DNA from: Candidatus Falkowbacteria bacterium
GTDB lineage: Bacteria > Patescibacteriota > Patescibacteriia > XYB2-FULL-38-15
Length of the DNA: 60,671 bases
Direction: 5' to 3'
Assembly: GCA_016214745.1 (NCBI GenBank)
Contig: JACRNW010000009.1
Span: 1 to 60,671 of the forward strand
The notes beneath the pieces are model-generated. The model was not told the origin of the DNA. It was given only the letters and a program-made list of their open reading frames with translations, and did not search any database. Shown one piece after another: positions 862 through 51,232 of the stretch; position 1 is the stretch's first letter, and each line of letters opens with the position of its first letter. A program made the translations under genes and the position numbers.

Positions 862-3273
862 ATGACTAATCAAATCGGACTGACTTCAAATGAGGCGAAA
901 TCTAAACTCGCCGAATTCGGCCCAAACCAGATTTACAAACCCACCGGGGTCAATTTTTGGACTATTGCCCGCCAAGAAGTGACTGAACCTATGATTCTGC
1001 TTCTTCTTGTCGTGGGATTTTTTTATAGTCTCTGGGGAAAATTGGAAGACGCCATCACAATTTTTGTCGTAATTTTTCTTTTGGTCCTGGCCGAGGTTTG
1101 GAATGAATTCCGGGCGAAACGTGCCATCGCCGCGCTGGAAAAACTCGCCGCGCCAAAAACAAAAGTTTTTCGCGACGGCGCGATAACGGAAATTAATTCC
1201 GAAGAAGTCGTGCCCGGTGATATTTTAATTTTAACGGTGGGCACAAAAATCGCCGCCGACGCCAAAATAAAAAAATCTCTCGGGCTTGCGCTTGACGAGT
1301 CAGCCCTGACCGGCGAATCTTTTCCTAAAGAAAAAAAGCTGGACGAAGAAATTTTTGCCGGCACGACGGTAGTCGCGGGCGTTGCGGAGGCCGAGGTCAC
1401 AAAAACCGGCAAAATGACGCGCCTGGGCGAACTCGCCGCCGCCGCCAAAATCATCAAGCCGCCGAAAACCGCCCTGCAGCTGGCCATGAAATCTTTGTCT
1501 AAAAAAATGGTTTACGTGGCCGTCTTTTTTTCCGTTTTAATTCCCACGATCGGTATTTTGCGCGGCGAAGATCTCCGGACCATGATTTTAACCGGCCTTT
1601 CTTTGTCCTTTGCCACGATCCCCGAAGAATTGCCGATTATTATTACCATGATTTTGGGATTGGGCGCTTATACCCTTTCCAAAAATAATTTTTTAGTCAA
1701 AAAAATAAAAGTAGCGGAAACCTTGGGCAATGCCACGGTAATTGTGACGGACAAAACCGGCACCATCACTGAAAATAAATTAAAAATTGCCGCGGCGATT
1801 CCGGCGGGCAAGGAAAAAAATATTTTAGAAACGGCTCTGGCCGCGATGAGCGAATTTTCTCTTTTCCCGCTTGACCAGGCGATTGAAGACAATGCTAAAG
1901 AGCTTGGAATTTCGACGCCGGGAAAATTATTTCATCAAAGAGATCTTGGCGACGGAAGAAAAACCAAATCAGCCGTCCGGAAAACCGGCGACGGCTTTGA
2001 ACTTTTTGCTTCCGGCGCGCCGGAAGAAATTCTCGCCATGTGCCGAGCCGATAGCGCGGGCATCGCGGCGGAACTTCTGCGCCAAACCGGCCTTGGAAGA
2101 CGGGTAATCGCCGTGGCTAAAAAAACTCTCGCGCCGGGCGAGGAAAATTTTGACTTTATAAAATTGGAAAAAGAAATGAATTTTGTCGGCCTTTTAAGTT
2201 TTGAAGATCCACCCCGCGCCGGCGTTCGAGAAACTATCCTTCAGGCGGCCCGGGCCGGCGTCCGGACAATTATGGTAACCGGCGACCATCCTTTAACCGC
2301 CATTTTTATCGCCAAATCCGTCGGCATCACGGGCAACGGAAAAGTTTTGACTGGCGCGGAATTGGATAAATTAAACGATGCGGGACTTCAAGAAACCGTT
2401 AAAACTGTTTTTGTTTTTGCCCGCACCACGCCGGAACATAAATACCGCCTGGTCCAGGCCTTGCAAAAAAACGGCGAGGTGGTAGCTGTTACCGGCGACG
2501 GAATTAATGACGCGCTAGCGCTCCGAGGCGCGGACATTGGCATTGCTATGGGAAAACGCGGTACGGACGTAGCCAAAGAAGCCGCCGAAGTGGTCCTCGC
2601 CGACGATAATTACGTCACTATTGCCCAAGGAATTTTTGAAGGCAGAAAATTTTTTGATAATTTGAGCAAAGGCATTAAATATTATCTTTCAGTTAAAGTC
2701 GCGCTTGTCCTTATTTTTCTTCTGCCCGTAATTTTAGGTATACCGACGCCCATGTCGCCAATCCAAATTATTATTTTGGAATTATTTATGGATCTCGCCG
2801 CCTCAGCCGGTTTCATTTCCGAACCGAAAGAAAAAAATATTTACGCTCGGCCGCCGCGCGACCCAAAAGAAAAGGTTTTCAACGCTCGTGCCCTCCGCGA
2901 CATTATCTTGAAGGGACTGACGCTTTTTGCTTCGGTCACAATCGTGTATTTTTACGCCCGCTCCAAAAATTTTGAACTTCATGAAGCGCAAACTTTTGCC
3001 TTCACGGCCTGGATTTTTGGACACATTATTTTGGCCTTTGTTTCGCGAAGCGACCGGGAACCGCTTTTTTCTCTGGGATTTTTTACCAACAAAATTATTA
3101 ATTTTTGGGCTGTCGCCGCCATTGCTTTTCTCTTTTTTGCAATCTTCCTGTCGCCGCTCGGCGCGCGGTTTAATCTTGCTCCGATTAATTTGTCGCAAAT
3201 ATTTTTAATCGCTCTCGTGCCGCTCGTGATTATACTCCCGCTCGAAATTAGAAAATTATTTTACTCGCGATAG
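862..3273 (+). CDS. P-type cation-transporting ATPase (P2-type-like)
   Basis: It contains the DKTGTITENK phosphorylation motif, TGDHPLTA and VTGDGINDALAL, with multiple TM segments at the N- and C-terminal ends. Confidence 0.95.
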   Translation: MTNQIGLTSNEAKSKLAEFGPNQIYKPTGVNFWTIARQEVTEPMILLLLVVGFFYSLWGKLEDAITIFVVIFLLVLAEVWNEFRAKRAIAALEKLAAPKTKVFRDGAITEINSEEVVPGDILILTVGTKIAADAKIKKSLGLALDESALTGESFPKEKKLDEEIFAGTTVVAGVAEAEVTKTGKMTRLGELAAAAKIIKPPKTALQLAMKSLSKKMVYVAVFFSVLIPTIGILRGEDLRTMILTGLSLSFATIPEELPIIITMILGLGAYTLSKNNFLVKKIKVAETLGNATVIVTDKTGTITENKLKIAAAIPAGKEKNILETALAAMSEFSLFPLDQAIEDNAKELGISTPGKLFHQRDLGDGRKTKSAVRKTGDGFELFASGAPEEILAMCRADSAGIAAELLRQTGLGRRVIAVAKKTLAPGEENFDFIKLEKEMNFVGLLSFEDPPRAGVRETILQAARAGVRTIMVTGDHPLTAIFIAKSVGITGNGKVLTGAELDKLNDAGLQETVKTVFVFARTTPEHKYRLVQALQKNGEVVAVTGDGINDALALRGADIGIAMGKRGTDVAKEAAEVVLADDNYVTIAQGIFEGRKFFDNLSKGIKYYLSVKVALVLIFLLPVILGIPTPMSPIQIIILELFMDLAASAGFISEPKEKNIYARPPRDPKEKVFNARALRDIILKGLTLFASVTIVYFYARSKNFELHEAQTFAFTAWIFGHIILAFVSRSDREPLFSLGFFTNKIINFWAVAAIAFLFFAIFLSPLGARFNLAPINLSQIFLIALVPLVIILPLEIRKLFYSR

Positions 3274-3340
3274 AAATACTCCGTGTTCTCTGCGCTCGCT
3301 CGTCCCGCCCTGGCGGGATCTCACTCGTTTGATAATAAAA
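3274..3340. repeat. copy 1 of a 3-copy conserved element with a variable central hairpin
   Basis: The sequence is AAATACTCCGTGTTCTCTGCGCTCGCTCG, then TCCCGCC-CT-GGCGGGA, then TCTCACTCGTTTGATAATAAA. It aligns to 24033..24099 and 58251..58324. Confidence 0.85.
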
Positions 3341-3371
3341 AAAGCGCCGAAAGCAGTGATGCTCGCGGCGC
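3337..3371 (-). terminator. intrinsic terminator of the Cys-rich ORF
   Basis: The minus strand reads GCGCCG...CGGCGC followed by TTTTTTT. Confidence 0.55.
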
Positions 3372-3481
3372 CCGACACGACAAGTCGGACTTGTGTCTTC
3401 CCTCCCTACTTCTTCCTATCGGAAACTTCCGGCACCTAGTGCAGGAGCAAAAACGCTCGGCCGACGCAGCGCAGGCAGCCG

Positions 3482-3733
3482 CTACGCGGCGCGGCTCATC
3501 CTCTTTGCCCGCTTCTTCGGCTGCCGAGCCAAGAGCGCCGCGCCATCCGCGGTCGCCTCGCCCAGCATCCAGGGCTCGAGTTCCACCTTGGGCAAGAACT
3601 GCATGCCGCCGCACTTGCCGCAGACCCCGCCATGCTGAATGCAAGCGCAACATCCGCACTTCCCGCTGCACCCACAGTGGTCGCAGGGAATTCCCTTGGC
3701 CGCGACTTCTCCAAGTATTCTCCTCGTCGACAT
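3482..3733 (-). CDS. Cys-rich small protein (83 aa), unknown family
   Basis: GGAGAGAGGAGAG lies upstream of the ATG. The protein has a CDHCGCSGKCGCCACIQHGGVCGKCGG core, and the ORF sits in a GC-rich island. Confidence 0.6.
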   Translation of the reverse strand: MSTRRILGEVAAKGIPCDHCGCSGKCGCCACIQHGGVCGKCGGMQFLPKVELEPWMLGEATADGAALLARQPKKRAKRMSRAA

Positions 3734-3804
3734 TCTCTCCTCTCTCCTTCCCTTTCCCCCGGGTTAACACTGGTTCCCGATCCCGTGCCAAACACAATAT
3801 CAAT

Positions 3805-3833
3805 AAATTATCACTCTGAAAATTTTTTGTCAA
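3805..3833 (-). promoter_or_regulatory. sigma70-like promoter (TTGACA, then an AT-rich -10 within GTGATAATTT)
   Basis: The hexamers read on the reverse complement upstream of 3482..3733. Confidence 0.4.
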
Positions 3834-3844
3834 GATAAATTTGA

Positions 3845-5416: not shown

Positions 5417-8400
5417 ATGCCGCTTCTTAATCAAGAACAAAATAAAGCTCACAACTCACACGCGCTCAATTTGCGGCAGACAGAGCGGAAAAAGGCGCAG
5501 AAAGAGCAAAAACGACGTTTGGCTTGCAAAGACCTGCAATGTTATTTAGGCGTTCATTGCTCAAATGCCCACCCGATATTAAAAATATTTAAAAAATTTT
5601 GGCATTGTTTAAAGTGGGCGATAAAACTTCTCGTGCCTGATTTTTTGATTGGCCATCCGAATTTATGGGATAACCTCAAAACCCTCCGCAAACATCCGCA
5701 ATTCAAGCCCCTGCGCATGGCGCTCGTGGCTTGGCTGATTTTTTTCTTGACCACCGGCTCTTTGTGGGGAATTTTTATTTTTAGAACTTATGCTGCCGCC
5801 GGATCAGGAGCGTTCAAGAATTGTGAATCCCAGGGTGCTTGCACTGGCGGCGGCACGCCGAGCGCAAACGACCCGGATGGAAACACAACATTGAGCACTG
5901 AACGAGTATGGTTAAGAACCACCCACAATACCAACACCGTAGATCCTGGCTTCAGTTATTCAGGCGGGGGCGAAGGGTCGGGAAACAGTATTGAGGTGTG
6001 GCTTTCCACTTCTTTGGCTACAGGGCATGCCACGTGGGCACCAAACGTTACCGTAACCGTACAATATTCTACTGATAACGGCGGAAGTTGGAGTAATGTC
6101 ACTGGCTTTCCTCAAACAGTTACTCCCACTTGGGCCGACGCCCTTGCGCAAACCAGCAACAGAGTGCAAATAACCGCTACTCTTCCCACGAGCGGCGATA
6201 TTGATAAATATAGGTTTAAGGCGGAATCAACAGAAATGGGGAGCAGCGACCCCATCAGCGTAACCCAAGATCCAGCGCAGTCAAATTTAAAGTTTGCCGT
6301 TTCTCCCACGACTGACTCGTCAAATTATAATCCCACGGCAACAATAAATGGCGTAACTACTACGGTTACGGTTACCGGCACTCTTACTTATGACTGGGGC
6401 GCCACGCCGGCTGATTACGGAGGAACCGGCGAAACAGTAACAGCCACTGTTAAAGATCAAAACAACGCCACCCAGCAGTCCCCCACTGGAACCATCAACG
6501 CCGACGGCACATTTTCTATACCTTTCAACTTGCCCAACGCGGCCGAGTTTGGTCAATGGACAGTGCTTGTTGATTACAGTCACAACCAAGACGCAGTCAC
6601 ACAAGGCAACGACACCTTTCTCGTCAATCTCGCCTTTTCCGATGTAACCTATCAGGTTTTTCAAAACGATGTGTCTGGCGGCACAAAAGAATCCAACAAC
6701 ACTGGCACCGCCAATATGGGCGTGCCGATTTTCATTACTGCCACACCATTTAACAATCCCGACAATGACAGCTTAACCGGTGTACAAATCCACTGGAATG
6801 TGTCTTCCCCGCCGGCAAATCAAACTTTTGCCGCCTGCACGACCTCCTGTACCAAAGAAATTACCGTGCCCACCGGCGCCGGAAATGCCGGAGCCGCAGA
6901 AATTGAAATCACCGGCACTGAACAAAACGGCAGTAACCCGGCCGCGACAGTTTCATCATCAATTTCAGGCTTTTCCGACCGCGCCATCACTCTTTCTACG
7001 GCTTGGAAATACTCAACCGTAAATACATCAATTGATAACGGCATTACCACAGATCATGATGTTTATAATCTTGGTGAAACGGTTAATTCTAACTTTTATC
7101 TCTACAATGTTCGCGACCAATTAGTTAAAGGCGAGGCAGCCGGCTCTTTAACTTTGGAAATTATTAAAGCGTCCGGAGGAAATGACACGTCTGTGGCGGG
7201 CGAGACCGTTGATGCCAATGGCTATGTTGCATGGAGTTATCTAACTTCTTCAAGCCATCAATACGCAAATGATGCGGTTGGCAGTACAAAACAGTTAAAA
7301 ACCATCGACGCCGACGGAAATACCGTAACTAGCGGAAACGAATGGGCGCTTTCCTCACTTTTGACCGTTGATAACATCTGGCACTCTAAATTGACTTCCG
7401 ACCCGTCTGAAGCAACCCAGTTTTTTATTGGCGCGGACAATATGCAGGTGAAAACGCACGTGTTGAATGTTCGGAACGAAAATAAGTCAGGCGCCGATGT
7501 CGCCCATGAAGTGCGCGACCCGGACAACAACCTCAACACTTCCTGGACAAATGCTACGGGGGCGGACGGCTGGACCGCTTTTCAAAAAGTTGTGCCTGAA
7601 GCGCCGGCTGGCGCTTGGTCGCTTAAAGCCACTGCCTCTGACGCGAGCGGCAATTCCTCGGCAACCGCCACGGAAAGTATTTCTTATGTCAGCGCCTATA
7701 CCGCAAAATACGGCATTCGCACAGTTGGCTGGAATCAGGAATATCACAAGGGTGATACTGCGACCTTCACTATTCAACTCTTGGAAAAAGACTCAAATGA
7801 TGATTGGTCCGCGGTTAATCCTGATACCGGCACAACGCCGTACTATGAAATTCAGTATTGGACAGGAAGCGCGTGGTCTTCGGTAGTGGGTCGAACCAAT
7901 ATGGATGAAAAAATTGCAAGTTCAACATGGGAGAAAAGTTACGCTATTCCTAACAGCGACACAGTCATCGGCAGAAAATATTCCATCACCTTTAATGCCA
8001 AGCTAGGCGGCGCGCAAATCGCCCAACTAAAAGAATTTGCTGTTGTGCAGCTAAGAGCCGGCGATCCGATGACCGTTGCCGCCTCGCCAGTACGAGCAGC
8101 CCCAAATGATACAGTAAAAGTAACAATTCGCGAAGCAAACCTTGATGCTACCGTACTTACCGGCAACGCGGCGAACACTTTTATTTATATTTACGATTCC
8201 AATAACACCTTACAAGTGAACGGCGCAAATCCCACAGAATTAGCAAATGGCGCTTATTATTACGATTATACTTTAGGCGCCTCGCCGATGAGCGGTGTTT
8301 GGCAAGCAGTGGTAAAAGTTACCATTGGCGGCAGCGATTATGCCGCGGCAACCAATTTTCAGATTGATTATCAATTGGCGAAAGAAACAACTGCACAAGA

Positions 8401-11400
8401 AATTAAAACTAAGACAGACACGATTGACTGGACTGACGTAACTACCATCAAGAACAACGTGGCGACTCTGATTTCCGAGATCGGCACTGGCAACATCAGC
8501 GCCATCAAAACCAAAACCGACACGATTGCATGGGGCGATATTACCGGTCTTGTAACCACGAGCGGCCAAATAAAGGCCAAGACTGACACGATCGCCTGGA
8601 CTGATGTTTCGGCGATTAAAACGAAGACGGACACGATTGTATGGAGCGACGTCACCGGCATTGATACAAAGGTGACATCGTTGCAATCCGATATGGCGAC
8701 TCTGATTTCCGAAATCGGCACAGGCAACATCAGCGCCATCAAAACCAAAACCGACACCATCAATTGGGCCAATGTCACGAGCATTTTGACGGACACCGGC
8801 GCCATCAAAACCAAAACCGACACCATCGCTTGGACTGACATTGCGGCAATAAAAACCCAAACTGATACCATTGTTTGGGGCGATGTGACGGGAATTAAAC
8901 TGAAAACCGACACCATTGTCTGGGGTGACATTACTGATATCAAAACTAATGTTGCTGCCCTTATTACCGAAGTTGGCACAGGCAACATCAGCGCCATCAA
9001 AACCAAAACCGACACCATCAATTGGGCCAATGTCACGAGCATTTTGACGGACACCGGCGCCATCAAATTAAAAACCGATACCATTGATTGGACTCATGTT
9101 ACGGCTATCAAAACTAAAACCGATACGATTAGTTGGGACGATGTTACCGGAATTAAACTGAAAACCGACACCATCAATTGGTCGGATGTCACTACCATTA
9201 AAAATAACGTTGATACCATAAATACTAACGTGAACACCATTAATGCGAATGTGGATATTTTAATTGGCGCATTTATTGTAACCCAATCAACGGTCAACGA
9301 CGCTTCGCCTTCTGTCACTTCCTTTATCACCTCTCTCACCAATTCTACTGATGATTTTTACAAAAATTCAGTACTGACTTTCACTTCCGGCGCCCTAAAC
9401 GGACAGGTGCGCCGAATTTCGGCTTACAACGGCACAACAAAAAGTATTACTCTTGACCCGGCTTTAACTTCTGCGCCAGCCAATGGCGACGCCTTCACCA
9501 TTGCCAAACAAAATGTCCGAGTGGAAGAACAAGTAAGCAATGTTCAAAGCGATGTGACAACAATTAAAAGTGATACGGCTTACATCAGAACAAAAGCAGA
9601 TAGTATTTATAGTTTATTGCAAACGGTTGACACAAATTTAAGCAGTGTAGAGACAATAGTCACCGCGCTTCGCACTTCCCAACAAACAGCATACAGTGCC
9701 AAACTTTCTAATGTTTCAGAAATTCAGGCCGGCAATACTTACAGAGCCAAACTGACACTGCTTGATTTTGAATCAGAACCGGTGGACGCGGCAAGCACTC
9801 CCACTATCACTATTTATGATTCAACGCGCGCCGTAGCAGTTGCCAGCACCACAATGACAAAACTTTCTCCCGGCGTATACGAGTACACTTACGCCTTATC
9901 TTCATCCGCCACTACCGGGCTTTGGGAGGCAATCGTGAACGCGGCAGCGGGCAGTTCCGGCACGCAGACGCTTAACGATTATTTTCAGGTAACTGGGTCA
10001 CCGGCGCAAGTGGTGATTAACTCAATGTCTGATTTAACCGTACCGTCAATTGCGGCCGATACCACTATCACCAACGAAGGCGGCGGCGCGTTTGAATATC
10101 AGTACGAATGGTGTGTGGTTTCCTCAGAGGAAAATCCGTGCGGCGGCGCTGATGATGTGTATTACGCCTCAGCCGCGAAATTAATTCAGGCCGGCGACAG
10201 TTTTAATACACAACTCACCGCCACCGTGCCGAATACTGGGGACTATTGGTTCAAAGTAGTGGTTTATTTCGGCACGCAGGCTTCTGGCGCTTCGCGAACC
10301 TTTACCGCAACCACAGAAACGGCAGTACCCTCTGGCGGCGGGGGACCGCCTGCTCCGAGCGTTACACCCGCTCCAGAAGAAATTTCGCATAACACGATAT
10401 ACAGCGAAGTGGTGAAAGTAAAAAAGATGTTGGAACTTGAATCAATACGAATCGGCAGAATGCTTGATACGCTCGGAATTATTAATCCCGACATTAAACA
10501 ACTGTTAATAATGAATGAAGCCCAGTTAACCGATTTAAAGAGCGTGCAGAATAAACTTGCAGATATTAAAGCCGTGTCCTCGGTTACGCGGCGGATTGTG
10601 GAAGAAGGCGCCGTCCAACCCGTCATTGAAACATATATGACGTTCAATTCAGTGGAAATACATTTTCTTATCACCAATCCCGCGAACACAGAGCAAACAA
10701 TTAAGTTTAAATCATTTTTGCCAGAGGAAGTCAGGCCGGAACATATTCTTGATTCAAACGGACTCAAGGTTGATTTTGACGCCGGGGCGAGCGTGTACTT
10801 TGTTTCCGGAGACATTGCCTTGGGTCCCAAACAAACTGTGACCAGAAAAGTGGAACTAAAGGACATCTGGGTTTTCCCTGAAGAAGAAATTATTTCGCTC
10901 GGCCGGCAAAGCACGGATTTGGCCGCGGCGCTTCGTGATACCCAGTACGACGCCCAAGGCACGATATTAAAAAATGACATAGATTCCGCGCTTGAAATAG
11001 TTCTGCAAAAACAAAAAGATGGCTATGCATCTCCTCAAGATCATATTGTGGCTTTTCGCGAGAATAAATTACGGATGGAAAAAGTTGAAAAAAATTTGGA
11101 AAAATTAAAAGATCTGGTGGTGCAAGCCGGCGCTTCGCAAGGGTTGGTGGGTAAGGTTGGCGGCATTCAAACTTTTGCCACTTGGGGAATAGTTTTGGCG
11201 ATTGTGTTTGGTTTTGGACTTTTGGCGGCCGTTATTTTTGCGATGTGGCGACACCAGATGGCACTTGCCGCCATAACAATGGGAATGTCGCGGAGAGAAG
11301 TTATGGAAAAATTCGGCGGATTTGGCGCAAGACAAAGAACCCGCAAAATCACCAAAGTTAAAAAAGTTTCACCCTTGATGCGTCGAGCGACACGGCGTCT

Positions 11401-11854
11401 CCCATGGAAGAAAATTTTGATTGGCCTCGTGACAGTTGGACTACTTTCGGGTCTGCCACTTTTGGCAATAAAATTTTTGCCGAGTTTGCTTGGAGACGAG
11501 AAATTGAAACCCGAAAATCAAGAAAGTTCCTCGCTTTTGCCAGAAGATTCCGCAACGCCGGAAACAGCTAGTTTCTCGGCAATCCCGGAAATGCAAACAT
11601 CAAATATAAATTACGACTTGAAATTTAAGGACGAAGAATTTACGCCGGCTAATCCTAAATTGAAAATAAGCGATACTCTAACCAATTGGATAAATGTTCG
11701 TGACAGAGCTTCACGCGAAGGAAAGATCGTTGCGAGGGCGTACCCCGGCAAAGAATACGAATACATTAATAAAAATGGCGGGTGGTATGAGATTAAATTA
11801 TCGGATGACAAGACGGGATGGATTTTGGGACAATACGCCAAACCGATTCAGTAA
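5417..11854 (+). CDS. giant (2145 aa) membrane-anchored, Thr/Ser/Asn-rich surface protein with a C-terminal SH3b-like domain
   Basis: This is a single uninterrupted ORF. It has an N-terminal TM segment (MALVAWLIFFLTTGSLWGIFIF) and two TM segments near 11170..11470. Its C-terminus WINVRDRASREGKIVARAYPGKEYEY..GWYEIKL..GWILGQY is SH3_3-like. The start codon is uncertain (5417 versus 5716). Confidence 0.9.
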   Translation: MPLLNQEQNKAHNSHALNLRQTERKKAQKEQKRRLACKDLQCYLGVHCSNAHPILKIFKKFWHCLKWAIKLLVPDFLIGHPNLWDNLKTLRKHPQFKPLRMALVAWLIFFLTTGSLWGIFIFRTYAAAGSGAFKNCESQGACTGGGTPSANDPDGNTTLSTERVWLRTTHNTNTVDPGFSYSGGGEGSGNSIEVWLSTSLATGHATWAPNVTVTVQYSTDNGGSWSNVTGFPQTVTPTWADALAQTSNRVQITATLPTSGDIDKYRFKAESTEMGSSDPISVTQDPAQSNLKFAVSPTTDSSNYNPTATINGVTTTVTVTGTLTYDWGATPADYGGTGETVTATVKDQNNATQQSPTGTINADGTFSIPFNLPNAAEFGQWTVLVDYSHNQDAVTQGNDTFLVNLAFSDVTYQVFQNDVSGGTKESNNTGTANMGVPIFITATPFNNPDNDSLTGVQIHWNVSSPPANQTFAACTTSCTKEITVPTGAGNAGAAEIEITGTEQNGSNPAATVSSSISGFSDRAITLSTAWKYSTVNTSIDNGITTDHDVYNLGETVNSNFYLYNVRDQLVKGEAAGSLTLEIIKASGGNDTSVAGETVDANGYVAWSYLTSSSHQYANDAVGSTKQLKTIDADGNTVTSGNEWALSSLLTVDNIWHSKLTSDPSEATQFFIGADNMQVKTHVLNVRNENKSGADVAHEVRDPDNNLNTSWTNATGADGWTAFQKVVPEAPAGAWSLKATASDASGNSSATATESISYVSAYTAKYGIRTVGWNQEYHKGDTATFTIQLLEKDSNDDWSAVNPDTGTTPYYEIQYWTGSAWSSVVGRTNMDEKIASSTWEKSYAIPNSDTVIGRKYSITFNAKLGGAQIAQLKEFAVVQLRAGDPMTVAASPVRAAPNDTVKVTIREANLDATVLTGNAANTFIYIYDSNNTLQVNGANPTELANGAYYYDYTLGASPMSGVWQAVVKVTIGGSDYAAATNFQIDYQLAKETTAQEIKTKTDTIDWTDVTTIKNNVATLISEIGTGNISAIKTKTDTIAWGDITGLVTTSGQIKAKTDTIAWTDVSAIKTKTDTIVWSDVTGIDTKVTSLQSDMATLISEIGTGNISAIKTKTDTINWANVTSILTDTGAIKTKTDTIAWTDIAAIKTQTDTIVWGDVTGIKLKTDTIVWGDITDIKTNVAALITEVGTGNISAIKTKTDTINWANVTSILTDTGAIKLKTDTIDWTHVTAIKTKTDTISWDDVTGIKLKTDTINWSDVTTIKNNVDTINTNVNTINANVDILIGAFIVTQSTVNDASPSVTSFITSLTNSTDDFYKNSVLTFTSGALNGQVRRISAYNGTTKSITLDPALTSAPANGDAFTIAKQNVRVEEQVSNVQSDVTTIKSDTAYIRTKADSIYSLLQTVDTNLSSVETIVTALRTSQQTAYSAKLSNVSEIQAGNTYRAKLTLLDFESEPVDAASTPTITIYDSTRAVAVASTTMTKLSPGVYEYTYALSSSATTGLWEAIVNAAAGSSGTQTLNDYFQVTGSPAQVVINSMSDLTVPSIAADTTITNEGGGAFEYQYEWCVVSSEENPCGGADDVYYASAAKLIQAGDSFNTQLTATVPNTGDYWFKVVVYFGTQASGASRTFTATTETAVPSGGGGPPAPSVTPAPEEISHNTIYSEVVKVKKMLELESIRIGRMLDTLGIINPDIKQLLIMNEAQLTDLKSVQNKLADIKAVSSVTRRIVEEGAVQPVIETYMTFNSVEIHFLITNPANTEQTIKFKSFLPEEVRPEHILDSNGLKVDFDAGASVYFVSGDIALGPKQTVTRKVELKDIWVFPEEEIISLGRQSTDLAAALRDTQYDAQGTILKNDIDSALEIVLQKQKDGYASPQDHIVAFRENKLRMEKVEKNLEKLKDLVVQAGASQGLVGKVGGIQTFATWGIVLAIVFGFGLLAAVIFAMWRHQMALAAITMGMSRREVMEKFGGFGARQRTRKITKVKKVSPLMRRATRRLPWKKILIGLVTVGLLSGLPLLAIKFLPSLLGDEKLKPENQESSSLLPEDSATPETASFSAIPEMQTSNINYDLKFKDEEFTPANPKLKISDTLTNWINVRDRASREGKIVARAYPGKEYEYINKNGGWYEIKLSDDKTGWILGQYAKPIQ
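8398..9260 (+). repeat. intragenic tandem repeats (K-T/L-K-T-D-T-I-x-W-x-D/N-V-T, about 14-15 aa units, about 20 units)
   Basis: This is read from the translation. A perfect 93-nt duplication links 8717..8809 and 8975..9067. Confidence 0.9.
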
Positions 11855-24011: not shown

Positions 24012-24032
24012 TTTGAGAAAGGGTTTTAAACC

Positions 24033-24099
24033 CTGTGTTATCTGCGCTCGCTCGGAAAAGTAAATAAATTTACTTTTCACTCACTCGCTTGATAATAAA
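24033..24099. repeat. copy 2 of the 3-copy conserved element
   Basis: The sequence is CTGTGTTATCTGCGCTCGCTCG, then GAAAAGTAAAT-AA-ATTTACTTTTC, then ACTCACTCGCTTGATAATAAA. Its right end overlaps the stop of the GT4 gene. Confidence 0.85.
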
Positions 24100-25303
24100 T
24101 TTGTAAAGTTTTTTCGGCTAAATTTTGCCAACTGTATTTTTTGACCTGTTCTAAACCCAATTTTATAAGATTTTGCCTTGTCGGCTCATCGCTCCAGACA
24201 AATTTTATTTTTTCTATCATGTCTTGTTCGTCTTTCGGGTCAAAATAAACCGCAGCGTCGCCATAAATTTCCGGAAGGCATGAAGAATTTGAAGCCGCGA
24301 GTGGCAAACCATAACTCATGGCTTCAAGGCCTGGCAGGCCAAATCCTTCAACAAACGACGGGAAAACGTAGACTCGCGCGTTGCGGTAAAGATCGGCGAG
24401 GATTGCTTCGGAAACAAAGTCGGTGAAAATTATATTCTTCTCATTCGGCGTTCCTTTAATTTCCTCCTTCATCCTTTTATAAAAATAGTCTTCACGACCG
24501 ACCAATACTAACTGACAATCTAAATTTAATTTAGGAAAAATTTTTATTAGTCCTTCCAAATTTTTATGCGGATAGGCGTTGCCGACGTAAAGAAGATACG
24601 GCTTCGTGATTCCGAACTTGGCCAGATTTTTTTTCTCCGGCATTTTTAACTGACCATATTCCACGCCGTCACAGGCCTCATAGGTGACCGCGATTTTTTC
24701 CGGATTAATTTTGAAAAATTTTACTAATTCTTTTTTGGTGCACTCGGAAACGGTAATAACTTTTTTCGCCCGCCGGAGGCCGAGACCAATCACGAGTCGA
24801 TAACCAAAATATTTTATTTTGTAAAGTAGTGGACCGAGCGTTGTCGCCCGCGGGGTTGGAAACTGTAACAAAATTAAATCATGAATTGTCGCGACAAATT
24901 TTGCCGGACAAAAAATGGGAATGTTAAAGTGCGGAAAATGGACAAGATCAAGCTTCTCTTGCCGAATTTTCCAGGGCATCATTATTTGCTCTTTCAGACT
25001 ATACCACGGGTAATCGGCTAAAACTTTTTTGAAATTGGAAACTTTGGGAGTGTAATAATCCCAATTTTCTTTTCGTAAAAAAATTATGTATTCATTTTGG
25101 GGACCTGCCCCGTACGAAGTAGAGGTATTTTTTTTCTCCTCAACACCCCTCTCACCTTGCGTTTGTTGCTCCGCCGAGTTCATCGGTTCGCTGAAACTTC
25201 GTATGGGGTCAAGTTTTTCCAGATTTTCCACCAACCGCTCCACATATCTGCCCAAACCCTTGCCCACCGGCCCAAAAAACCTCGCATCAATACCTATTTT
25301 CAT
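24077..25303 (-). CDS. glycosyltransferase family 4
   Basis: It has the EGFGLPGLEAMSYGLPL..PEIYGDAAVYFDP motif and carries an about 100-nt hairpin insert near the N-terminus. Confidence 0.85.
   Translation of the reverse strand: MKIGIDARFFGPVGKGLGRYVERLVENLEKLDPIRSFSEPMNSAEQQTQGERGVEEKKNTSTSYGAGPQNEYIIFLRKENWDYYTPKVSNFKKVLADYPWYSLKEQIMMPWKIRQEKLDLVHFPHFNIPIFCPAKFVATIHDLILLQFPTPRATTLGPLLYKIKYFGYRLVIGLGLRRAKKVITVSECTKKELVKFFKINPEKIAVTYEACDGVEYGQLKMPEKKNLAKFGITKPYLLYVGNAYPHKNLEGLIKIFPKLNLDCQLVLVGREDYFYKRMKEEIKGTPNEKNIIFTDFVSEAILADLYRNARVYVFPSFVEGFGLPGLEAMSYGLPLAASNSSCLPEIYGDAAVYFDPKDEQDMIEKIKFVWSDEPTRQNLIKLGLEQVKKYSWQNLAEKTLQIYYQASE
25108..25208. repeat. long hairpin element inside a GT4 ORF (CCCCGTACGAAGT ... 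ACTTCGTATGGGG)
   Basis: The 13-nt arms are complementary with one G:T pair. The arms resemble the element at 36453..36556. Confidence 0.6.
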
Positions 25304-29733: not shown

Positions 29734-30028
29734 CCCCCCACTTATTAAGCCTCATTCAAACTATGTCTCAATCTTTCCCTGATTCTGCGATAACCCTGTT
29801 TAAACATCTTTAATTTCCGCTCCCTGTCCCGTGCGTCTTTTGATGATTTATATGCTTCATAATAAACCAACTCAAATGGAGCACCGCTCTTCGTGGATTT
29901 AGATTGTTTCTTGTTATGTTCTTCTAGCCGCCTTCTCAAATCAGAAGTAAAACCAATATATAATTTTCCATTAATTTTACTTCTAAGAATGTAGCAATAA
30001 TGCATAACAAGGCTTAATAAGTGGGGGG
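29734..30028. repeat. CCCCCCACTTATTAAGCC-clamped hairpin at the P3 position of rnpB, enclosing the GIY-YIG ORF
   Basis: The 18-nt arms at 29734..29751 and 30011..30028 are perfectly complementary. Confidence 0.85.
29745..30005 (-). CDS. GIY-YIG nuclease superfamily protein (UPF0213/YhbQ-like, 86 aa)
   Basis: The protein reads MHYCYILRS..GKLYIGFTSDLRRRLEEHN...YYEAY.S..DARDRERKLK. It has the same orientation as rnpB, and its stop codon lies within the hairpin arm. Confidence 0.8.
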   Translation of the reverse strand: MHYCYILRSKINGKLYIGFTSDLRRRLEEHNKKQSKSTKSGAPFELVYYEAYKSSKDARDRERKLKMFKQGYRRIRERLRHSLNEA

Positions 30029-33984: not shown

Positions 33985-34079
33985 AAATAAATAAAATTAA
34001 ACTATTATAAATTAAATGCCGGAGGGGAGAGTTGAACTCCCATGGCCTTGCGGCCACACGGCTCTGAACCGTGCGCCTG

Positions 34080-34187
34080 CCCCCACACCAATGCCGCGGG
34101 TGGGAGTTGAACCCACATGACCTTGCGGCCACACGGCTCTGAACCGTGCGTGTATACCATTTCACCACCGCGGCATTGGTGTGGGGG
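34080..34187. repeat. CCCCCACACCAAT ... ATTGGTGTGGGGG hairpin element carrying a complete tRNA
   Basis: The 13-nt arms stack continuously on the acceptor stem of the inner tRNA, giving a perfect 20-bp helix. Confidence 0.8.
34092..34174 (-). tRNA. tRNA-Leu(CAG), class II with a long variable arm
   Basis: The acceptor is GCCGCGG/CCGCGGC, the anticodon loop TTCAGAG, the variable arm TGGCCGCAAGGTCAT and the T-arm GTGGG-TTCAACT-CCCAC. No CCA is encoded. Confidence 0.9.
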
Positions 34188-37627: not shown

Positions 37628-38245
37628 ATGATTGAAATACGCTTGCACGGCCGGGGCGGCCAAGGCACGGTCACGGCGGCCGAATTGATTGCCGAAGCGG
37701 CTTTCCAGGACGGGAAATTTTCTCAAGCTTTTCCTTCTTTTGGCATTGAACGGCGTGGCGCGCCAGTCGAAGCCTTTGCCCGGATTTCCGATAAACCAAT
37801 TACTTTACATTCAAAAATATACGAACCGGATTATTTGATTATCCAAGACTCAACGCTCATTAATTTAGATCTTGTCCGGCAAGGAGTCGGCCCAAAAACC
37901 TTTATCATTATTAATACTGAAAAGAGCGCCGCTGATTTTAAAAAAATCTTTGAAAAAAATACTATTCAAACTATTCCGGCGACGCAAATCGCGCTCGCGA
38001 TTTTAGGAAAACCTATTATTAACACCATTTTGCTTGGCGCTTTTGCGGGCGTTTGCGGTTTGCTTAATCCCGCCTCTTTAACCTCGGCCATCTCGGCCCG
38101 TTTTAAAAAAGAAATTGCCGAAAAAAATATCAAGGCCATGAATACCGCCTATTGCCACTGCAGCTCAAATTCCGAGTATTGTTTCACGGCGGAAAAATGT
38201 ACGATAGCCGTAGACGGCGGGCAAAAATTTTCCGTCACTTGCTGA
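37628..38245 (+). CDS. porG: pyruvate/2-oxoacid:ferredoxin oxidoreductase gamma subunit
   Basis: It has the HGRGGQGTVTAAELIAEAAF motif. Confidence 0.9.
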   Translation: MIEIRLHGRGGQGTVTAAELIAEAAFQDGKFSQAFPSFGIERRGAPVEAFARISDKPITLHSKIYEPDYLIIQDSTLINLDLVRQGVGPKTFIIINTEKSAADFKKIFEKNTIQTIPATQIALAILGKPIINTILLGAFAGVCGLLNPASLTSAISARFKKEIAEKNIKAMNTAYCHCSSNSEYCFTAEKCTIAVDGGQKFSVTC

Positions 38246-38294
38246 TCCTAAGGATCCTGAGGATCGTAAGGATCTTAAAGATCCTGAGGATAAT
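38244..38294. repeat. 9-bp-periodic array GATCCTAAG GATCCTGAG GATCGTAAG GATCTTAAA GATCCTGAG GATAAT
   Basis: This is read directly between the porG stop and the porD start. It contains five GATC sites at exact 9-bp spacing. Confidence 0.9.
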
Positions 38295-38635: not shown

Positions 38636-39004
38636 ATGGATAATTCTTACTCAAAAACTTTTCGACAATTAGTAGTTTGGCAAGAAGCAAAAAAGTTATG
38701 CTTAAATATTTATAGAATAACAAAAAATTTCCCTCAAGAAGAAGTATACGCCCTGGTTTCCCAACTAAGAAGATCTGCCTATTCTGTCTTGGCAAACATC
38801 GCCGAGGGCAATGAGCGCAAGGGTATTAAAGACCGTCTAAATTTTTTTAATATTGCGAGGGGTTCATTGGTGGAATTAGATTGTCTCTTAGAATTATCAT
38901 TTGACCTCAATTATTTAAATGAAAAGGATTATAAAAATTTGTTAGAAAAAATAAATAAAGTGGCATATCTATTAAATAAATTCATCGTCGCTCAAAAATC
39001 CTAA
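38636..39004 (+). CDS. four-helix-bundle protein of the 23S rRNA intervening-sequence protein (S23p/Avd-like) family
   Basis: The pattern is FRQLVVWQEAKKL...VSQLRRSAYSVLANIAEGNER...FFNIARGSLVELDCLLE. Confidence 0.8.
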   Translation: MDNSYSKTFRQLVVWQEAKKLCLNIYRITKNFPQEEVYALVSQLRRSAYSVLANIAEGNERKGIKDRLNFFNIARGSLVELDCLLELSFDLNYLNEKDYKNLLEKINKVAYLLNKFIVAQKS

Positions 39005-39038
39005 GTATCGTAAATATCTTAAAAATCGTAAAGATCCT
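39002..39038. repeat. degenerate 9-bp-periodic array (TAAGTATCG TAAATATCT TAAAAATCG TAAAGATCC)
   Basis: This is read directly, just upstream of the porA ATG. Confidence 0.75.
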
Positions 39039-40187
39039 ATGCTAAAATTCATGGAAGGCTCGCGCGCCATCGCCGAAACCGTGAAACTCTGCCGCCCCGA
39101 CGTGGTCGCCGCCTATCCAATTACTCCCCAAACTCATATCTTGGAAAATCTGGCCGAATTTAAGGCGGAGGGCCAGGCTAATTTTGAATACTTAAAAACG
39201 GAAAGCGAAATGGCCGCGGCTTCAGCCGTGCTGGGAGCAAGCGCCGCGGGCGCGAGAGTTTACACAGCCTCGGCCTCACAGGGATTGCTTTTGATGACCG
39301 AAGTTTTATTTAACATTGCCGGTATGCGTTTGCCGGTTGTGATGACTTGCGCTAACCGCGCCGTTTCCGCTCCGATAAATATTTGGAACGACGAACAAGA
39401 CGCGATGACGCTTCGGGACGCCGGCTGGATGATGTTTTTCGCCGAGGACAATCAAGAAGCGGCCGATCTTCATATTCTCTCTTACAAAATTGCCGAGGCG
39501 ACAAATCTTCCCGTTATGGTTTGTATGGATGGTTTTAGTCTGACTCACACTTTTGAACCGGTGGAAATTCGCGATCAAAAATTAGTTGATAAATTTTTGC
39601 CTCGGCGCAAACTGATTTCCGGCCAATATTTAAATCCCCAGAATCCAATAACCCTGGGCGGAATTTCTTCGCCGGAAAATTATATGCCCGCGCGGGAAAA
39701 ATTACATCAAGACCTAATAGACAGTAAAAAAATGATTCAAAAATTTTTTACTGAATTTAATAAATTATTTATAAAAAGAAAAAATTACAACGGCTTTATT
39801 GAATATTCCGGACCGCGTAACCCCAAACTGATGATTATTGCCATGGGTTCGGTTCTGGGAACCGCGAAAACTATTCTAAACAAAGAAAAACTTTCCGATA
39901 AAGTCGGCGTTTTAAAAATTAAATGTTTCCGCCCCTTTCCCGACGCCGAAATTTCAAAAATAATTTTGAGTATCAGGCCAAAACACATCGCCGTAGTTGA
40001 CCGAGCTGTTTCCTTGGGGCAAGGCGGAATTTTAGCCGGCGAAATAAAAAATCTTTGCCCCATCGGTATGGTTTCAAATTTCATTGTGGGTCTTGGCGGC
40101 AGAGATATTACTCCGGAACATATTGAAAAAATTGTAAAACTAAGTCTAAATGATAAAGCTTGCACGACGCGGTTTTATGATAAATAA
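39039..40187 (+). CDS. porA: pyruvate:ferredoxin oxidoreductase alpha subunit
   Basis: It has the AAYPITPQTHILE motif, and its 382-aa length fits. Confidence 0.9.
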   Translation: MLKFMEGSRAIAETVKLCRPDVVAAYPITPQTHILENLAEFKAEGQANFEYLKTESEMAAASAVLGASAAGARVYTASASQGLLLMTEVLFNIAGMRLPVVMTCANRAVSAPINIWNDEQDAMTLRDAGWMMFFAEDNQEAADLHILSYKIAEATNLPVMVCMDGFSLTHTFEPVEIRDQKLVDKFLPRRKLISGQYLNPQNPITLGGISSPENYMPAREKLHQDLIDSKKMIQKFFTEFNKLFIKRKNYNGFIEYSGPRNPKLMIIAMGSVLGTAKTILNKEKLSDKVGVLKIKCFRPFPDAEISKIILSIRPKHIAVVDRAVSLGQGGILAGEIKNLCPIGMVSNFIVGLGGRDITPEHIEKIVKLSLNDKACTTRFYDK

Positions 40188-42264: not shown

Positions 42265-43194
42265 ATGAACCAAAAATACAAAAATCCTTTTAATCATCTT
42301 CTCGCTCCGGGTCATCGCGGCTGTGCTGGCTGCGGCGAACTTTTAGCCGCGCGGCACGTAATTAACGCTCTCGGGAAAGATACGATTGTTGTTTGCGCCA
42401 CCGGCTGTCTTGAAGTGACGACTACTCCCTCGCCCGAATCTTCCTGGAAAATTCCCTGGATTCATTCGCTGTTTGAAAACGCTCCATCAGTCGCCTCCGG
42501 CATTTTAGCAGCCCTGCATACCAAAAATCATAAAAATCTTAAAGATCATAACAATCCTAAAAATCCTATCAACGTTGCGGTCTTCGGCGGCGATGGTTCA
42601 ACTTTTGATATTGGCTTTGGCGCTCTTTCCGGCCTTTGGACGCGGCGGGAAAATATTATTTATGTCTGCTTTGATAATGAAGCCTACATGAATACTGGCA
42701 ATCAATATTCGGCGGCGACGCCATTTGGCGCGGCCACCACGACTTCTCCTTCAGACACGACCATTTTTGGCAATGATTTTTTTAAAAAAGATCTCCCGGC
42801 GATCGCCGCCGCCCACGGCGTTTCCTATATCGCGACTTCAACTATCGGTTTTCCTGAAGACATCACGGCCAAAATTAAAAAGGCCTTGACTTTTTCCGGT
42901 CCAAAATATATCCAAATTCTTGTCGGCTGCGTACCAGGCTGGGGGTATGAATCAGAATTAACCGTTTCGCTTTGCCGCCTGGCCGCCCAATCCGGCCACT
43001 ATCCGGTTTTTGAAATGGAAAATGGAAAAATCACCAAGACCATGAAAATCCCGCAAAATAAACCCCCGGTTGAAGAATATTTAAAACTGCAAAAAAGATT
43101 TTCCCATCTTTTTAAAACTGATGAAGGCAAAAAACGAATTGCCTCCTTACAAAGAATGGCTGAAGAAAATATTAAAAAATACCAATTGAAGTAA
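42265..43194 (+). CDS. porB: pyruvate:ferredoxin oxidoreductase beta subunit (TPP-binding)
   Basis: It has GHRGCAGCGE and GGDGSTFDIGF motifs. An in-frame 9-nt repeat insert lies at 42522..42570. Confidence 0.9.
   Translation: MNQKYKNPFNHLLAPGHRGCAGCGELLAARHVINALGKDTIVVCATGCLEVTTTPSPESSWKIPWIHSLFENAPSVASGILAALHTKNHKNLKDHNNPKNPINVAVFGGDGSTFDIGFGALSGLWTRRENIIYVCFDNEAYMNTGNQYSAATPFGAATTTSPSDTTIFGNDFFKKDLPAIAAAHGVSYIATSTIGFPEDITAKIKKALTFSGPKYIQILVGCVPGWGYESELTVSLCRLAAQSGHYPVFEMENGKITKTMKIPQNKPPVEEYLKLQKRFSHLFKTDEGKKRIASLQRMAEENIKKYQLK
42522..42570. repeat. 9-nt-periodic repeat inside porB (CAAAAATCA TAAAAATCT TAAAGATCA TAACAATCC TAAAAATCC)
   Basis: It encodes KNHKNLKDHNNPKNP. The unit is the same as in the intergenic arrays. 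Confidence 0.75.
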
Positions 43195-49673: not shown

Positions 49674-51131
49674 TTACTCTCCTTTTACTACGGCCAGCGG
49701 CACGAGCCGCGCCACTTTTTTCGCGAGCCCCGCCCGGTCAACCACATCCACAACTTCATTAATATCTTTATACGCCAGCGGCGCTTCTTCAGTCAAACCG
49801 CTCATCGACGCGCAGCGAACAATAATTCCTTGCGCTTCTAATTCTTTTTTTAAAGTTTGGCCGCTGATACGCCGCCGCGACTCAGCTCGCGACATTCTCC
49901 GACCGGCTCCATGACAAGTTGAACCAAATGACTCGGCCATCGCCGTCTCGGTTCCAACCAAAACATACGACGCCGTTCCCATACTTCCGGGAATTAAAAC
50001 TGGCTGGCCGACCGCACGATAAATTTCCGGCAATTCCACGCGACCAGGACCGAAAGCTCTCGTCGCGCCTTTTCGGTGCAAACAGACTTTTACTTTTTTG
50101 CCGTCAATTTCATGCTCTTCAAATTTCGCGATATTGTGAGCCACGTCATAAACCAAATCCAAATTGTATTTGCCGCTCGTTTTATGGCTCAAAACTCTTT
50201 CCCAGGCTTGCCGAACTAAATTTGTAATCATCTGGCGATTAGCCCAGGCGAAATTAGCTGCCGCGGCCATGGCTTTAAAATACCTTTGTCCTTCGTCCGA
50301 GTCAAGCGGCGCCGACGCCAATTCCCGATCCGGCAATTTAATATTCCATGACGGCAATTTTTCATTCATTAATCTAACATAATCTGTGCAAACCTGATGC
50401 CCAAGTCCGCGTGAACCGGTGTGAATCATCACCGTAATTTGATTTTCGCGCATGCCAAAAATTTTGGCTACCTCCGGCAGAAAAATTTTTTCTATCCGCT
50501 GAATTTCCAAAAAATGATTGCCTGAACCGAGAGTGCCAAGCTGGTCTCGGCCGCGCTGTTTAGCGTGGTCTGAAACAAGCGAGGCGTCGGCGTTTAAAAG
50601 ACACCCGCCTTCTTCCGATTTTTCCAAATCTTCCTTCACACCATAACCCTGCGCAACCATTCGCCCCGCTCCACCCAAAAGTACGGCATCCAAATCTTTC
50701 TCGTTCAAAACCATTCTCCCGCCGCGCCCGACGCCCGACGGCACGTCGCGAGCAATTTGGTTAGCGAGATCAACCAAATACGGCGCGAGTTCGCTATGCA
50801 AAAAACTGCTCGTCAAAAGTCTGACGCCGCAGTTGATGTCATAACCCACGCCGCCCGGAGAAATTACTCCTCGTTTCGCGTCCATCGCCGCCACGCCGCC
50901 GATCGGAAAACCATAACCCTCATGAATATCGGGCATAGCCAAGGCATATTTTAAAATTCCCGGCAGAGTTGCAATATTAACCAGTTGCTCAAGCGACCGA
51001 TCTTCCTGAATTTCTTCAAGCATTTTTTCACTCGCGTAAATCCTCGCCGGCACCCGCATGTCAGAACGAAAAGATTGGGGAATTTCCCACAACTGGTTGC
51101 TGATTTTTTTAAATATTTCTTTTGCAAACAT
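49674..51131 (-). CDS. rtcB: RNA-splicing ligase RtcB
   Basis: It has PDIHEGYGFPIGGVAA, HTGSRGLGHQV and TCHGAGR motifs. Confidence 0.95.
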   Translation of the reverse strand: MFAKEIFKKISNQLWEIPQSFRSDMRVPARIYASEKMLEEIQEDRSLEQLVNIATLPGILKYALAMPDIHEGYGFPIGGVAAMDAKRGVISPGGVGYDINCGVRLLTSSFLHSELAPYLVDLANQIARDVPSGVGRGGRMVLNEKDLDAVLLGGAGRMVAQGYGVKEDLEKSEEGGCLLNADASLVSDHAKQRGRDQLGTLGSGNHFLEIQRIEKIFLPEVAKIFGMRENQITVMIHTGSRGLGHQVCTDYVRLMNEKLPSWNIKLPDRELASAPLDSDEGQRYFKAMAAAANFAWANRQMITNLVRQAWERVLSHKTSGKYNLDLVYDVAHNIAKFEEHEIDGKKVKVCLHRKGATRAFGPGRVELPEIYRAVGQPVLIPGSMGTASYVLVGTETAMAESFGSTCHGAGRRMSRAESRRRISGQTLKKELEAQGIIVRCASMSGLTEEAPLAYKDINEVVDVVDRAGLAKKVARLVPLAVVKGE

Positions 51132-51229: not shown

Positions 51230-51232
51230 TTT

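Follow-up and report, generated by a model that had tools for sequence, protein, structure and literature searches.

A hairpin repeat and its family

The window analysed here is the whole of a 60,671-nt stretch (contig JACRNW010000009.1, assembly GCA_016214745.1) of a Candidatus Falkowbacteria bacterium. It carries three copies of a hairpin-forming repeat, the subject of this report. The initial annotation had placed them at 3274–3340, 24033–24099 and 58251–58324, and all three were found there; in full they span 3275–3339, 24017–24099 and 58252–58324. A covariance model of the family found no further copy in the window. The near-identical shared flanks of that annotation were also recovered. 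The 20-nt right flank, CTCACTCGYTTGATAATAAA, occurred exactly three times (0.02 expected by chance; shuffled sequences never reached three), and the 14-nt left flank, TCTGCGCTCGCTCG, occurred three times without mismatches. A repeat search of the window also retrieved the copy families (D5, D10, D17).

The informative strand was the minus strand of the window, on which the genes with terminators ahead of copies 1 and 3 are also encoded. On this strand, with the insertion junction marked by ^, the full unit reads (T)TTATT^ATC-AAGCGAG(T/C)GAG-N-(P2 hairpin)-CGAGCGAGCGC-N-GAT-AAC-AC-(P3 hairpin)-TTATT. Its length is ~72 nt plus one TTTATT, with variants from ~55 to >160 nt. The outer stem P1 has 5 bp, TTATC pairing with GATAA. 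Type A units have a second hairpin, P3, followed by TTATT. Type B units, including window copies 1 and 3, are without P3 and end in ..AACACGGAGTATT or ..ACGGAGTATT. The 3' strand can accommodate additional hairpins at several points, and P2 and P3 can take up large inserts.

From P1 to P2, the two strands form a purine-rich helix: G8-C9', C9-G8', (G10·A7', A11·G6'), G12-C5', U13·G4', (G14·A3', A15·G2'), G16-C1'. It consists of two 5'-YGAG-3'/5'-CGAG-3' blocks, each with tandem G·A pairs. The minimum-energy fold calculated by ViennaRNA for the minus strand of copies 2 and 3 was exactly this helix. An alternative register was tried and set aside: both registers fitted, and the tandem 5'-GA-3'/3'-AG-5' form did slightly better on the larger set and in minimum-energy folding. 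The plus strand formed P1, P2 and P3 only, and its positions matching the purine-rich helix were C/T mismatches. The initial annotation had described the CTCG/CTCA tetranucleotides beside the hairpin as iterons. Because their plus-strand equivalents are C/T mismatches, they are most simply the complement of the G·A helix. Rather than direct repeats bound by a protein, they would make up both strands of a single irregular helix whose minus-strand form has CGAG/CGAG tandem G·A pairs.

The three copies and their parts were located as follows.

3275–3339, minus strand: copy 1, a degraded type B unit without P3 (model match 3285–3339, minus strand, 45.3 bits, E 2e-9)
3303–3319, no strand assigned: P2 hairpin of copy 1, a GC-rich 7-bp module TCCCGCC/GGCGGGA (plus strand TCCCGCC-CTG-GGCGGGA)
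24017–24099, minus strand: copy 2, a complete type A unit (model match 24037–24099, minus strand, 89.9 bits)
24020–24034, minus strand: P3 hairpin of copy 2 (from the fold and from P3 covariation across the family)
24055–24078, minus strand: P2 hairpin of copy 2, stem of 10 bp, TAAA loop
24077–24099, minus strand: overlap of copy 2 with the 3' end of a glycosyltransferase gene (24077–25303; open reading frame and translation, GT4 domains)
58252–58324, minus strand: copy 3, an intact type B unit (model match 58262–58324, minus strand, 89.1 bits)

Copy 1, read directly from the minus strand, is TTTATT^ATCAAACGAGTGAG-(TCCCGCC CAG GGCGGGA)-CGAGCGAGCGCAGAGAAC-ACGGAGTATT. It is decayed, with a broken outer stem (GAGAA for GATAA) and a G>A change in the 5' core, and it scored 45 bits against 89–90 bits for the other two. 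The stop codon of a P-type ATPase gene (3271–3273) lies 1 nt outside it. The layout of copy 2 is TTTATT^ATC..P1/P2..GATAAC-AC-(P3 AGGGTTTAAAACCCT)-TTTCTC, and its minimum-energy fold gave P1, the tandem-GA helix, P2 and P3 (z = -4.2). Copy 3 is laid out as TTTATT^ATCAAGCGAGTGAG-A-(GAAATGAAAT..ATTTCATTTT)-CGAGCGAGCGCAGATAAC-ACGGAGTATT, with a central stem of 9–10 bp. The initial annotation held that the hairpin differs entirely in each copy. This was borne out for copy 1, whose GC-rich module is a separate one and also caps or replaces P2 in L011, L059, L085, L001, L073 and L046 (loci compared with the window are given L numbers). Copies 2 and 3 have related P2 hairpins, with most stem positions in common and compensated differences.

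An exact two-part pattern of the repeat was found at 19 loci among 185,579 GTDB species genomes. These were mostly metagenome-assembled genomes of Patescibacteria, and some of the bins bore the names Elusimicrobiota or Gammaproteobacteria. With an 18-mer from the 5' half, 86 loci came up in JGI metagenomes. A covariance model, R1, was built from 50 cores and used with a threshold of E < 1e-3. Modelling the copies in this way, a check proposed in the initial annotation, yielded 128 copies with strong covariation from 98 sources (718 kb); 117 of these copies were distinct. In 31 copies the search 17-mer ATTATCAAGCGAGTGAG was lacking, which makes variation in the 5' half visible. Copy density was ~1 per 20 kb in the window, where copies are 20–34 kb apart, and reached six in 6 kb in L106.

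Covariation was assessed on the 117 distinct copies. Paired cells made up 96%, compared with 84% after shuffling and 32–58% with the partners slid, and 206 cells were doubly changed where 38 were expected. P1 was doubly changed in four of its five pairs (TTATC/GATAA, TTTGT/ACAAA, TTGCC/GGCAA, TTTTC/GAAAA, TTGAT/ATCAA, TTAGC/GCTAA) and P2 in 10 of 11, so the earlier statement that the hairpin structure is kept while its sequence varies holds for the family. P3 occurred as AGGGT/ACCCT, GGGGT/ACCCC, AGGGC/GCCCT, AGAGT/ACTCT and with longer A-U extensions; a U·G wobble in it (AGGGT/GCCCT) is possible on the minus strand only. In the purine-rich helix, the pair U13-G4' was UG in 73 copies, CG in 21, UA in 15 and mismatched in 4, and the four G·A positions were 87–97% invariant. 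Two further candidate readings of the unit were rejected. TATTAT is not a -10 box, as only TTATT was kept when P1 varied and no -35 was conserved, and the start and frame of a small peptide, MLSALARK*, were not conserved.

The bin labels were unequally reliable. The label of at least one "Gammaproteobacteria" contig, L012, is unreliable, because the contig is syntenic with a Patescibacteria contig at 70–80% nucleotide identity. The Elusimicrobiota label of L007 holds, its pdxA having a long series of Elusimicrobiota-named homologues at 40–80% identity. No earlier description of the repeat turned up in literature searches or in Rfam. It apparently forms an uncatalogued family of 65–90-base hairpin-forming DNA repeats in many groundwater Patescibacteria and some Elusimicrobiota. 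Divergent relatives with the same TTATT borders, CGAG-rich strands and another stem arrangement were seen at L125 7047–7135, which the family model missed, and at L044 1617–1749, a pair that scored weakly (~34 bits). The family probably belongs to a larger superfamily.

Insertion sites and GC-rich neighbours

New copies lie immediately 3' of TTTATT, usually right after a gene's terminator. The targets were typically of three types: the T-run and ATT behind an intrinsic-terminator hairpin, the TTATT behind a resident P3, and AATAAA/ATTTAT within or ending a gene. Presence and absence of the element could be compared at several sites. L123 (ATPase orthologue 81% identical) has the same GC-rich terminator as the copy 1 site, and there the site is empty (GGCGCTTTTTTATT^TATTTC). 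L124 (ATPase orthologue 78%) carries a type A copy where the window has the degraded type B copy 1. In the syntenic L004 and L012, the element lies at opposite ends of the spacer between RF1 and the next gene, with matching empty sites TTTTTTTATGT...

Insertions within genes defined the unit further. In pdxA of three Elusimicrobiota, a 78-nt unit is inserted in frame and antisense to the gene, adding the 26 amino acids NKGYKPCVISARSEMKTKFHFTHSLD; this insert was not present in six homologues. Comparison of the empty site (AAGAAT-GAG-AAAGTT) with the filled one (AAGAATAAA(72 nt)AATAAAAAAGTT) places AATAAA, that is TTTATT, on both sides of the unit. Three GT4 glycosyltransferases, namely the gene at window copy 2 and those of L018 and L048, are only 27–31% identical and share the C-terminus ..(I/V)YYQASE*. 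The target is made by the conserved codons ATT TAT for Ile-Tyr, and the stop codon and the Y-Q-A-S-E before it come from the element. Where units with different P1 stand in tandem, they share a single TTATT junction. Such arrays arose by one insertion after another behind the P3-TTATT of the copy already in place.

Most copies lie at gene ends: of 95 copies with a gene on either side, 87 are in contact with the 3' end of one gene or both. Among copies flanked by two open reading frames, 33 were co-oriented with the genes, 26 anti-oriented, 28 between convergent and 8 between divergent genes. The element avoids promoter-only spacers, but its orientation does not track that of transcription.

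Copies 1 and 3 adjoin the T-run of the GC-rich hairpin with which a block of 60–70% GC closes, in a window of ~44% GC. The features at these two sites are listed here.

3340–3371, minus strand: terminator hairpin and T-run of the island-1 gene (direct reading), supplying the hairpin-TTTTTTTATT target of copy 1
3482–3733, minus strand: island-1 gene (open reading frame) for an 83-amino-acid Cys-rich protein of CxxCxGxG type, 65% GC, with its own promoter at ~3800–3835
54549–57728, minus strand: 23S rRNA gene
58084–58162, minus strand: pair of sigma-70-type promoters for the 23S-5S operon, located downstream of copy 3 (11/12 and 10/12 matches)
58325–58372, minus strand: terminator hairpin and T-run of the island-3 operon, target of copy 3 (fold -18.5 kcal/mol; hairpin kept in L125 and L127)
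58390–60434, minus strand: island 3, a GC-rich operon with a Tad4-like gene first
58390–59325, minus strand: island-3 gene for a 311-amino-acid protein
59712–59921, minus strand: island-3 gene for a small membrane protein
59956–60135, minus strand: island-3 gene for a small membrane protein
60135–60434, minus strand: Tad4-like gene of island 3

Both blocks are protein-coding on the minus strand, each with a promoter that is AT-rich and of sigma-70 type and with a terminator that is GC-rich. The terminators rest on direct reading and fold energies, as their loops exceed the limit of a simple terminator scan, which misses them; the 41 nt upstream of copy 1 fold at -20.0 kcal/mol. The island-1 protein had no Pfam match, and its gene occurs with a homologous promoter in L049, L098, L123 and L124. 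The 311-amino-acid protein of island 3 had 12 homologues, of which the only two with an organism name given by the source were both from Patescibacteria. The island-3 gene order is conserved upstream of the 23S rRNA gene in L125–L128. The 99-amino-acid protein encoded at 60135–60434 (minus strand) matched Pfam Tad4, a type I Thoeris inhibitor, with E 7e-19, and a chromosomal operon is an odd place for a phage anti-defence family.

At the site orthologous to copy 3, L127 has an almost identical type B copy. L125, a closer relative, has a divergent variant there, TTATT^CTTCGAGTGAAG...CGAACAATGATATT. This suggests that the rRNA-proximal site was replaced or repeatedly targeted.

The association with GC-rich sequence was statistically real but one-sided, and it concerned mainly type B copies. 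The 300 nt on the TTTATT side were GC-rich in 10 of 17 type B copies against 10 of 99 others (Fisher p = 2e-5). On the opposite side, the 300 nt were GC-rich in 1 of 16 and 3 of 93, respectively. Nearly all type B copies lie behind a strong hairpin and T-run. The initial annotation had seen the element as sitting between host-like DNA and the terminator of a GC-rich island. The contact with the terminator stands for copies 1 and 3, but the element does not mark the border of a foreign island. Recent foreign DNA and retro-copied mRNAs were both considered as origins of the islands and rejected, the homologues being from Patescibacteria only, where named, and the operon being syntenic across relatives. 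The blocks are conserved, lineage-specific operons with an unusual composition. The element is associated with them because their terminators (a strong GC hairpin, T-run and ATT) are its insertion target, and target choice is the simplest account of the association. Type B copies, which have no P3 of their own, may depend on the upstream hairpin.

Blocks of 58–72% GC and about the size of a transcription unit were also seen more widely in genomes of 40–44% GC. They lie at 3340–3835, 58325–60670 and possibly 190–675 in the window, and in L039, L047, L037 and L004. The high-GC stretch spans approximately from the transcription start to the terminator hairpin, and promoters and the spacers between blocks are sharply AT-rich. 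Their genes encode small secreted, membrane or Cys-rich proteins found in Patescibacteria only, and some contigs have at least 7 kb of such blocks, in both orientations.

Mobility and rival explanations

The fold anatomy and its covariation, the TTTATT target, the presence/absence polymorphism, the nested and tandem insertions and the spread over two phyla are observed properties of this family. We regard it as reasonably likely that the repeat is a small non-autonomous mobile element, mobilised in trans via a single-stranded intermediate. The conserved fold would be the recognition site of an enzyme supplied in trans. Transposition would proceed via the folded single strand, most likely of single-stranded DNA, as with the HUH transposases TnpA of IS200/IS605 or RAYT. 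A duplex circle of 78 bp is sterically implausible. Recognition of a structure together with a short target is familiar from the HUH Y1 systems IS200/IS605 and REP/RAYT. Even so, an HUH enzyme specifically would be a doubtful choice of mobiliser within the single-strand reading. As a tentative extension, the repeat could stand for a class of structure-guided, TTTATT-specific hairpin transposons that cross phyla and are moved by an enzyme not yet recognised, with copies under selection and the tandem G·A helix serving as a recognition rod. Behind GC-rich operons with high expression and before rRNA promoters, retained copies could, for example, act as portable insulators or terminators.

Several observations weigh against this interpretation. 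As the initial annotation had stated, the window contains no Rep or transposase gene; among its 45 open reading frames there was also no integrase or reverse transcriptase. Clustering of neighbouring open reading frames at >100 loci found no recurrent protein family beside the copies, only housekeeping genes, with glycosyltransferases the commonest. Two approximate IS200/IS605 TnpA query sequences gave no match below E = 0.4 in ~780 kb of flanks. The TTTATT on both sides of the unit fits a 6-bp target duplication, or equally one target and one element-borne copy. P1/P2 and P3 differ in sequence and size, and type B units have no P3. Orientation relative to local GC skew was 75:52 (p = 0.05), a weak bias that was lost at stricter thresholds, and orientations were mixed within single loci. 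Between orthologues, the element was identical at 77 of 78 positions where the surrounding pdxA was 87–92% identical; such high conservation is a hint of gene conversion among the copies or of selection acting on them. The apparent conservation of the 5' half is inflated, since the metagenome search word fixed it in most copies, and so is the apparent pairing, the large alignment having been fitted to the model.

Among known elements, the repeat is in its working most like the repetitive extragenic palindromes (REP) with their RAYT transposases and the IS200/IS605-derived palindrome-associated transposable elements (PATEs). The REPs and bacterial interspersed mosaic elements (BIMEs) of Proteobacteria, served by RAYT (HUH Y1), are likewise short, extragenic, imperfect palindromes after a short motif (GTAG in REP, TTATT here). 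They too are enriched at gene 3' ends and between convergent genes, are numerous, have no transposase of their own and can cluster. The present fold is longer and composite (P1, tandem-GA helix, P2, optional P3). REPs are species-specific, whereas this repeat is near-identical across Patescibacteria lineages and Elusimicrobiota, and BIMEs are typically inverted pairs, whereas copies here are single or in direct tandem. No RAYT-like neighbour was found at >100 loci. With IS200/IS605 and PATEs, it shares the lack of terminal inverted repeats (no complementarity between the unit ends ATCAAGCGAG.. and ..ACAGGGTTAATACCC), the subterminal hairpins, a strand-specific structure that implies a single-stranded intermediate, and insertion directly 3' of a short fixed sequence (TTAC or TTGAT there, TTTATT here). 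IS200/IS605 elements have a strong replication-strand bias, and their two ends are usually alike. Unlike in them, the end structures differ here, the central hairpin is freely variable, the strand bias is weak and TTTATT stands on both sides; membership in the IS200/IS605 group is unproven.

Rickettsia palindromic elements are also palindromic repeats that can lie in frame in genes and be translated, like the 26 amino acids in PdxA, but here most copies are intergenic and the target is defined, and there is no sequence relationship. MITEs (transposable elements of miniature size with inverted repeats) of the terminal-inverted-repeat type (Correia, ERIC, RUP) are small, non-autonomous, intergenic and hairpin-folding too. 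The repeat differs from them in having no terminal inverted repeats, its sides being direct purine-rich repeats apart from the 5-bp P1.

A structured RNA transcribed from the minus strand is an unlikely alternative to the mobile-element reading. It would be a multi-copy small RNA, or a cis-acting module for protein binding, processing, insulation or termination, with P3 and UUAUU as its own intrinsic terminator and with copies duplicated and kept for host use. The three covarying stems, the conserved internal loop, the optional stems at fixed points and the G·U wobbles on one strand speak for it, as do the P3-TTATT, which looks like a weak terminator, the better conservation of orthologous copies than of their surroundings, and the copy retained between operon terminator and rRNA promoter in the window and L127 (L125 having a divergent variant). 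However, nothing is conserved upstream of TTTATT that could be a common promoter, many copies lie directly behind a strong terminator that would block read-through, and orientation in tandem gene contexts is near random (33 vs 26). Copies also occur antisense within coding sequence, and duplication alone does not account for the strict TTTATT junctions and the empty sites. The initial annotation had raised the possibility of a known RNA family. A scan of the whole window with Rfam 15 at gathering thresholds found rRNA, RNase P and tRNAs only, scans at E <= 1 for copies 1 and 3 and E <= 10 for copy 2 gave noise only, and compensatory changes are present in the copies.

Two further readings would make the repeat a recombination site or an origin. 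An attC-like site of an integron-like capture system, in which GC-rich cassettes are each trailed by the element and the folded single strand is recombined, is very improbable. It would explain the paired outer box with its conserved AAC triplet, the unpaired or non-canonical centre and the variable terminal hairpin, the cassette-element-cassette-element arrays (e.g. L047), the hotspot between RF1 and the next gene with different GC-rich content in L004 and L012, and the one-sided association, always with the 3' end of the GC-rich unit. Integron attC sites are likewise folded single strands of kept structure, often at a cassette 3' end. Here, however, the RYYYAAC...GTTRRRY cores are missing; the repeat reads ATTNNN...NNNAAC, with TT/AA pairs at the outer and not the inner stem end, and its central primary sequence is highly conserved. 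About 80% of the copies have no GC-rich neighbour, many GC-rich cassettes have no element (e.g. L039, L098), and the cassettes are conserved, syntenic, Patescibacteria-only operons and not shuffled foreign genes. Solo insertions occur within genes, no IntI was found, and the window has no integrase and holds its copies 20–34 kb apart. On sequence, attC readings were ruled out, as were those as a DnaA box or dif.

Least credible of all is a role as double-stranded origin, or as nick site, for an HUH Rep protein (of a rolling-circle plasmid, phage or adeno-associated virus, AAV), with the GAGC/CTCG iterons bound as duplex. In its favour, (GAGC)n beside a hairpin may resemble the AAV Rep-binding element, CTTGATA the nick site of the pC194/phiX174 family, and the junction ..(A/T)GTATT^A.. 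the nick site TAnTATT^AC of CRESS-DNA Rep proteins. CTTGATA was discarded as a nick site, the string being lost in covarying P1 variants such as TTTGT/ACAAA. Copies are numerous, scattered and chromosomal, in genomes of two phyla, and none has a Rep gene nearby. BLAST against 72,556 plasmids and 50,697 phages returned sub-significant fragments only. IMG/VR held no match to the full pattern or the 3' half, and the 17 matches to the 5' 15-mer were chance matches without further similarity. The Rep-origin reading is disfavoured. The initial annotation had drawn an analogy to Rep nicking origins and to transposon ends; insertion behaviour bears out the transposon-like part, and the literal Rep origin is still an analogy, with HUH and Rep genes found neither in the window nor beside >100 other copies.

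Significance and further features of the window

Patescibacteria (candidate phyla radiation) have tiny genomes and are thought to be poor in mobile elements. The hairpin element occurs in dozens of groundwater and digester metagenomes, with several copies per 10 kb in some contigs. Together, model R1 and the TTTATT target give a precise signature for tracing the mobilising enzyme by phylogenetic profiling, and the element can be used to mark recent exchange of DNA among co-resident phyla. It also calls for care in annotation, since it supplies stop codons, C-termini (YYQASE*, LLSSE*), 26 PdxA residues and spurious open reading frames. For work on how proteins recognise non-canonical helices, the conserved double tandem-G·A helix offers a clean natural substrate.

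Other repeats and possible insertions were noted in the window. A MITE-like insertion at 58101–58246 (core 58113–58234) adjoins copy 3 and lies in the -35 region of a 23S rRNA promoter. It has 15-nt perfect inverted ends (CCCCGTTAGAAATCT and AGATTTCTAACGGGG), duplicated GTCAA flanks (TTGAC on the minus strand) and its own promoter-like site, and is not at the same place in L125 and L127. Its end motif also flanks a second, 48-nt in-frame insert in pdxA of L007 and was seen in L106 and L123. A 9-nt tandem repeat (GATCNTAAR-like) forms runs at 38245–38291, 38980–39044, 42509–42582 and 53447–53511. They flank a 23S_rRNA_IVP or bAvd-like gene (38636–39004, plus strand) amid genes for pyruvate:ferredoxin oxidoreductase subunits and recur at two other sites; this gene may be another small mobile cassette. 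At 34015–34075 there is a 61-nt stretch without a tRNA call that shares 89% identity with part (34090–34150) of the adjoining tRNA-Leu(CAG); it could be a tRNA fragment left by integration or a decayed second gene.

The P-type ATPase gene (862–3273, plus strand), at 47% GC, is richer than most of the window. Beyond its two close relatives, the best named homologues of its product (~69% identity) include many proteins of the archaeal Candidatus Methanoperedens. These features suggest inter-domain transfer. The 23S-5S operon (54388–57728, minus strand) has no 16S gene within 2.9 kb upstream. Genes for RtcB and archease adjoin tRNA-Ile(UAU) at 49674–51706 (minus strand), and a gene for a small GIY-YIG protein (29745–30005, minus strand) lies beside the RNase P RNA gene. 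A 2145-amino-acid surface protein with MG2 and SH3 domains (open reading frame 5417–11854, plus strand) is encoded with three tandem 258-nt repeats at 8457–9206, which are 66–83% identical.

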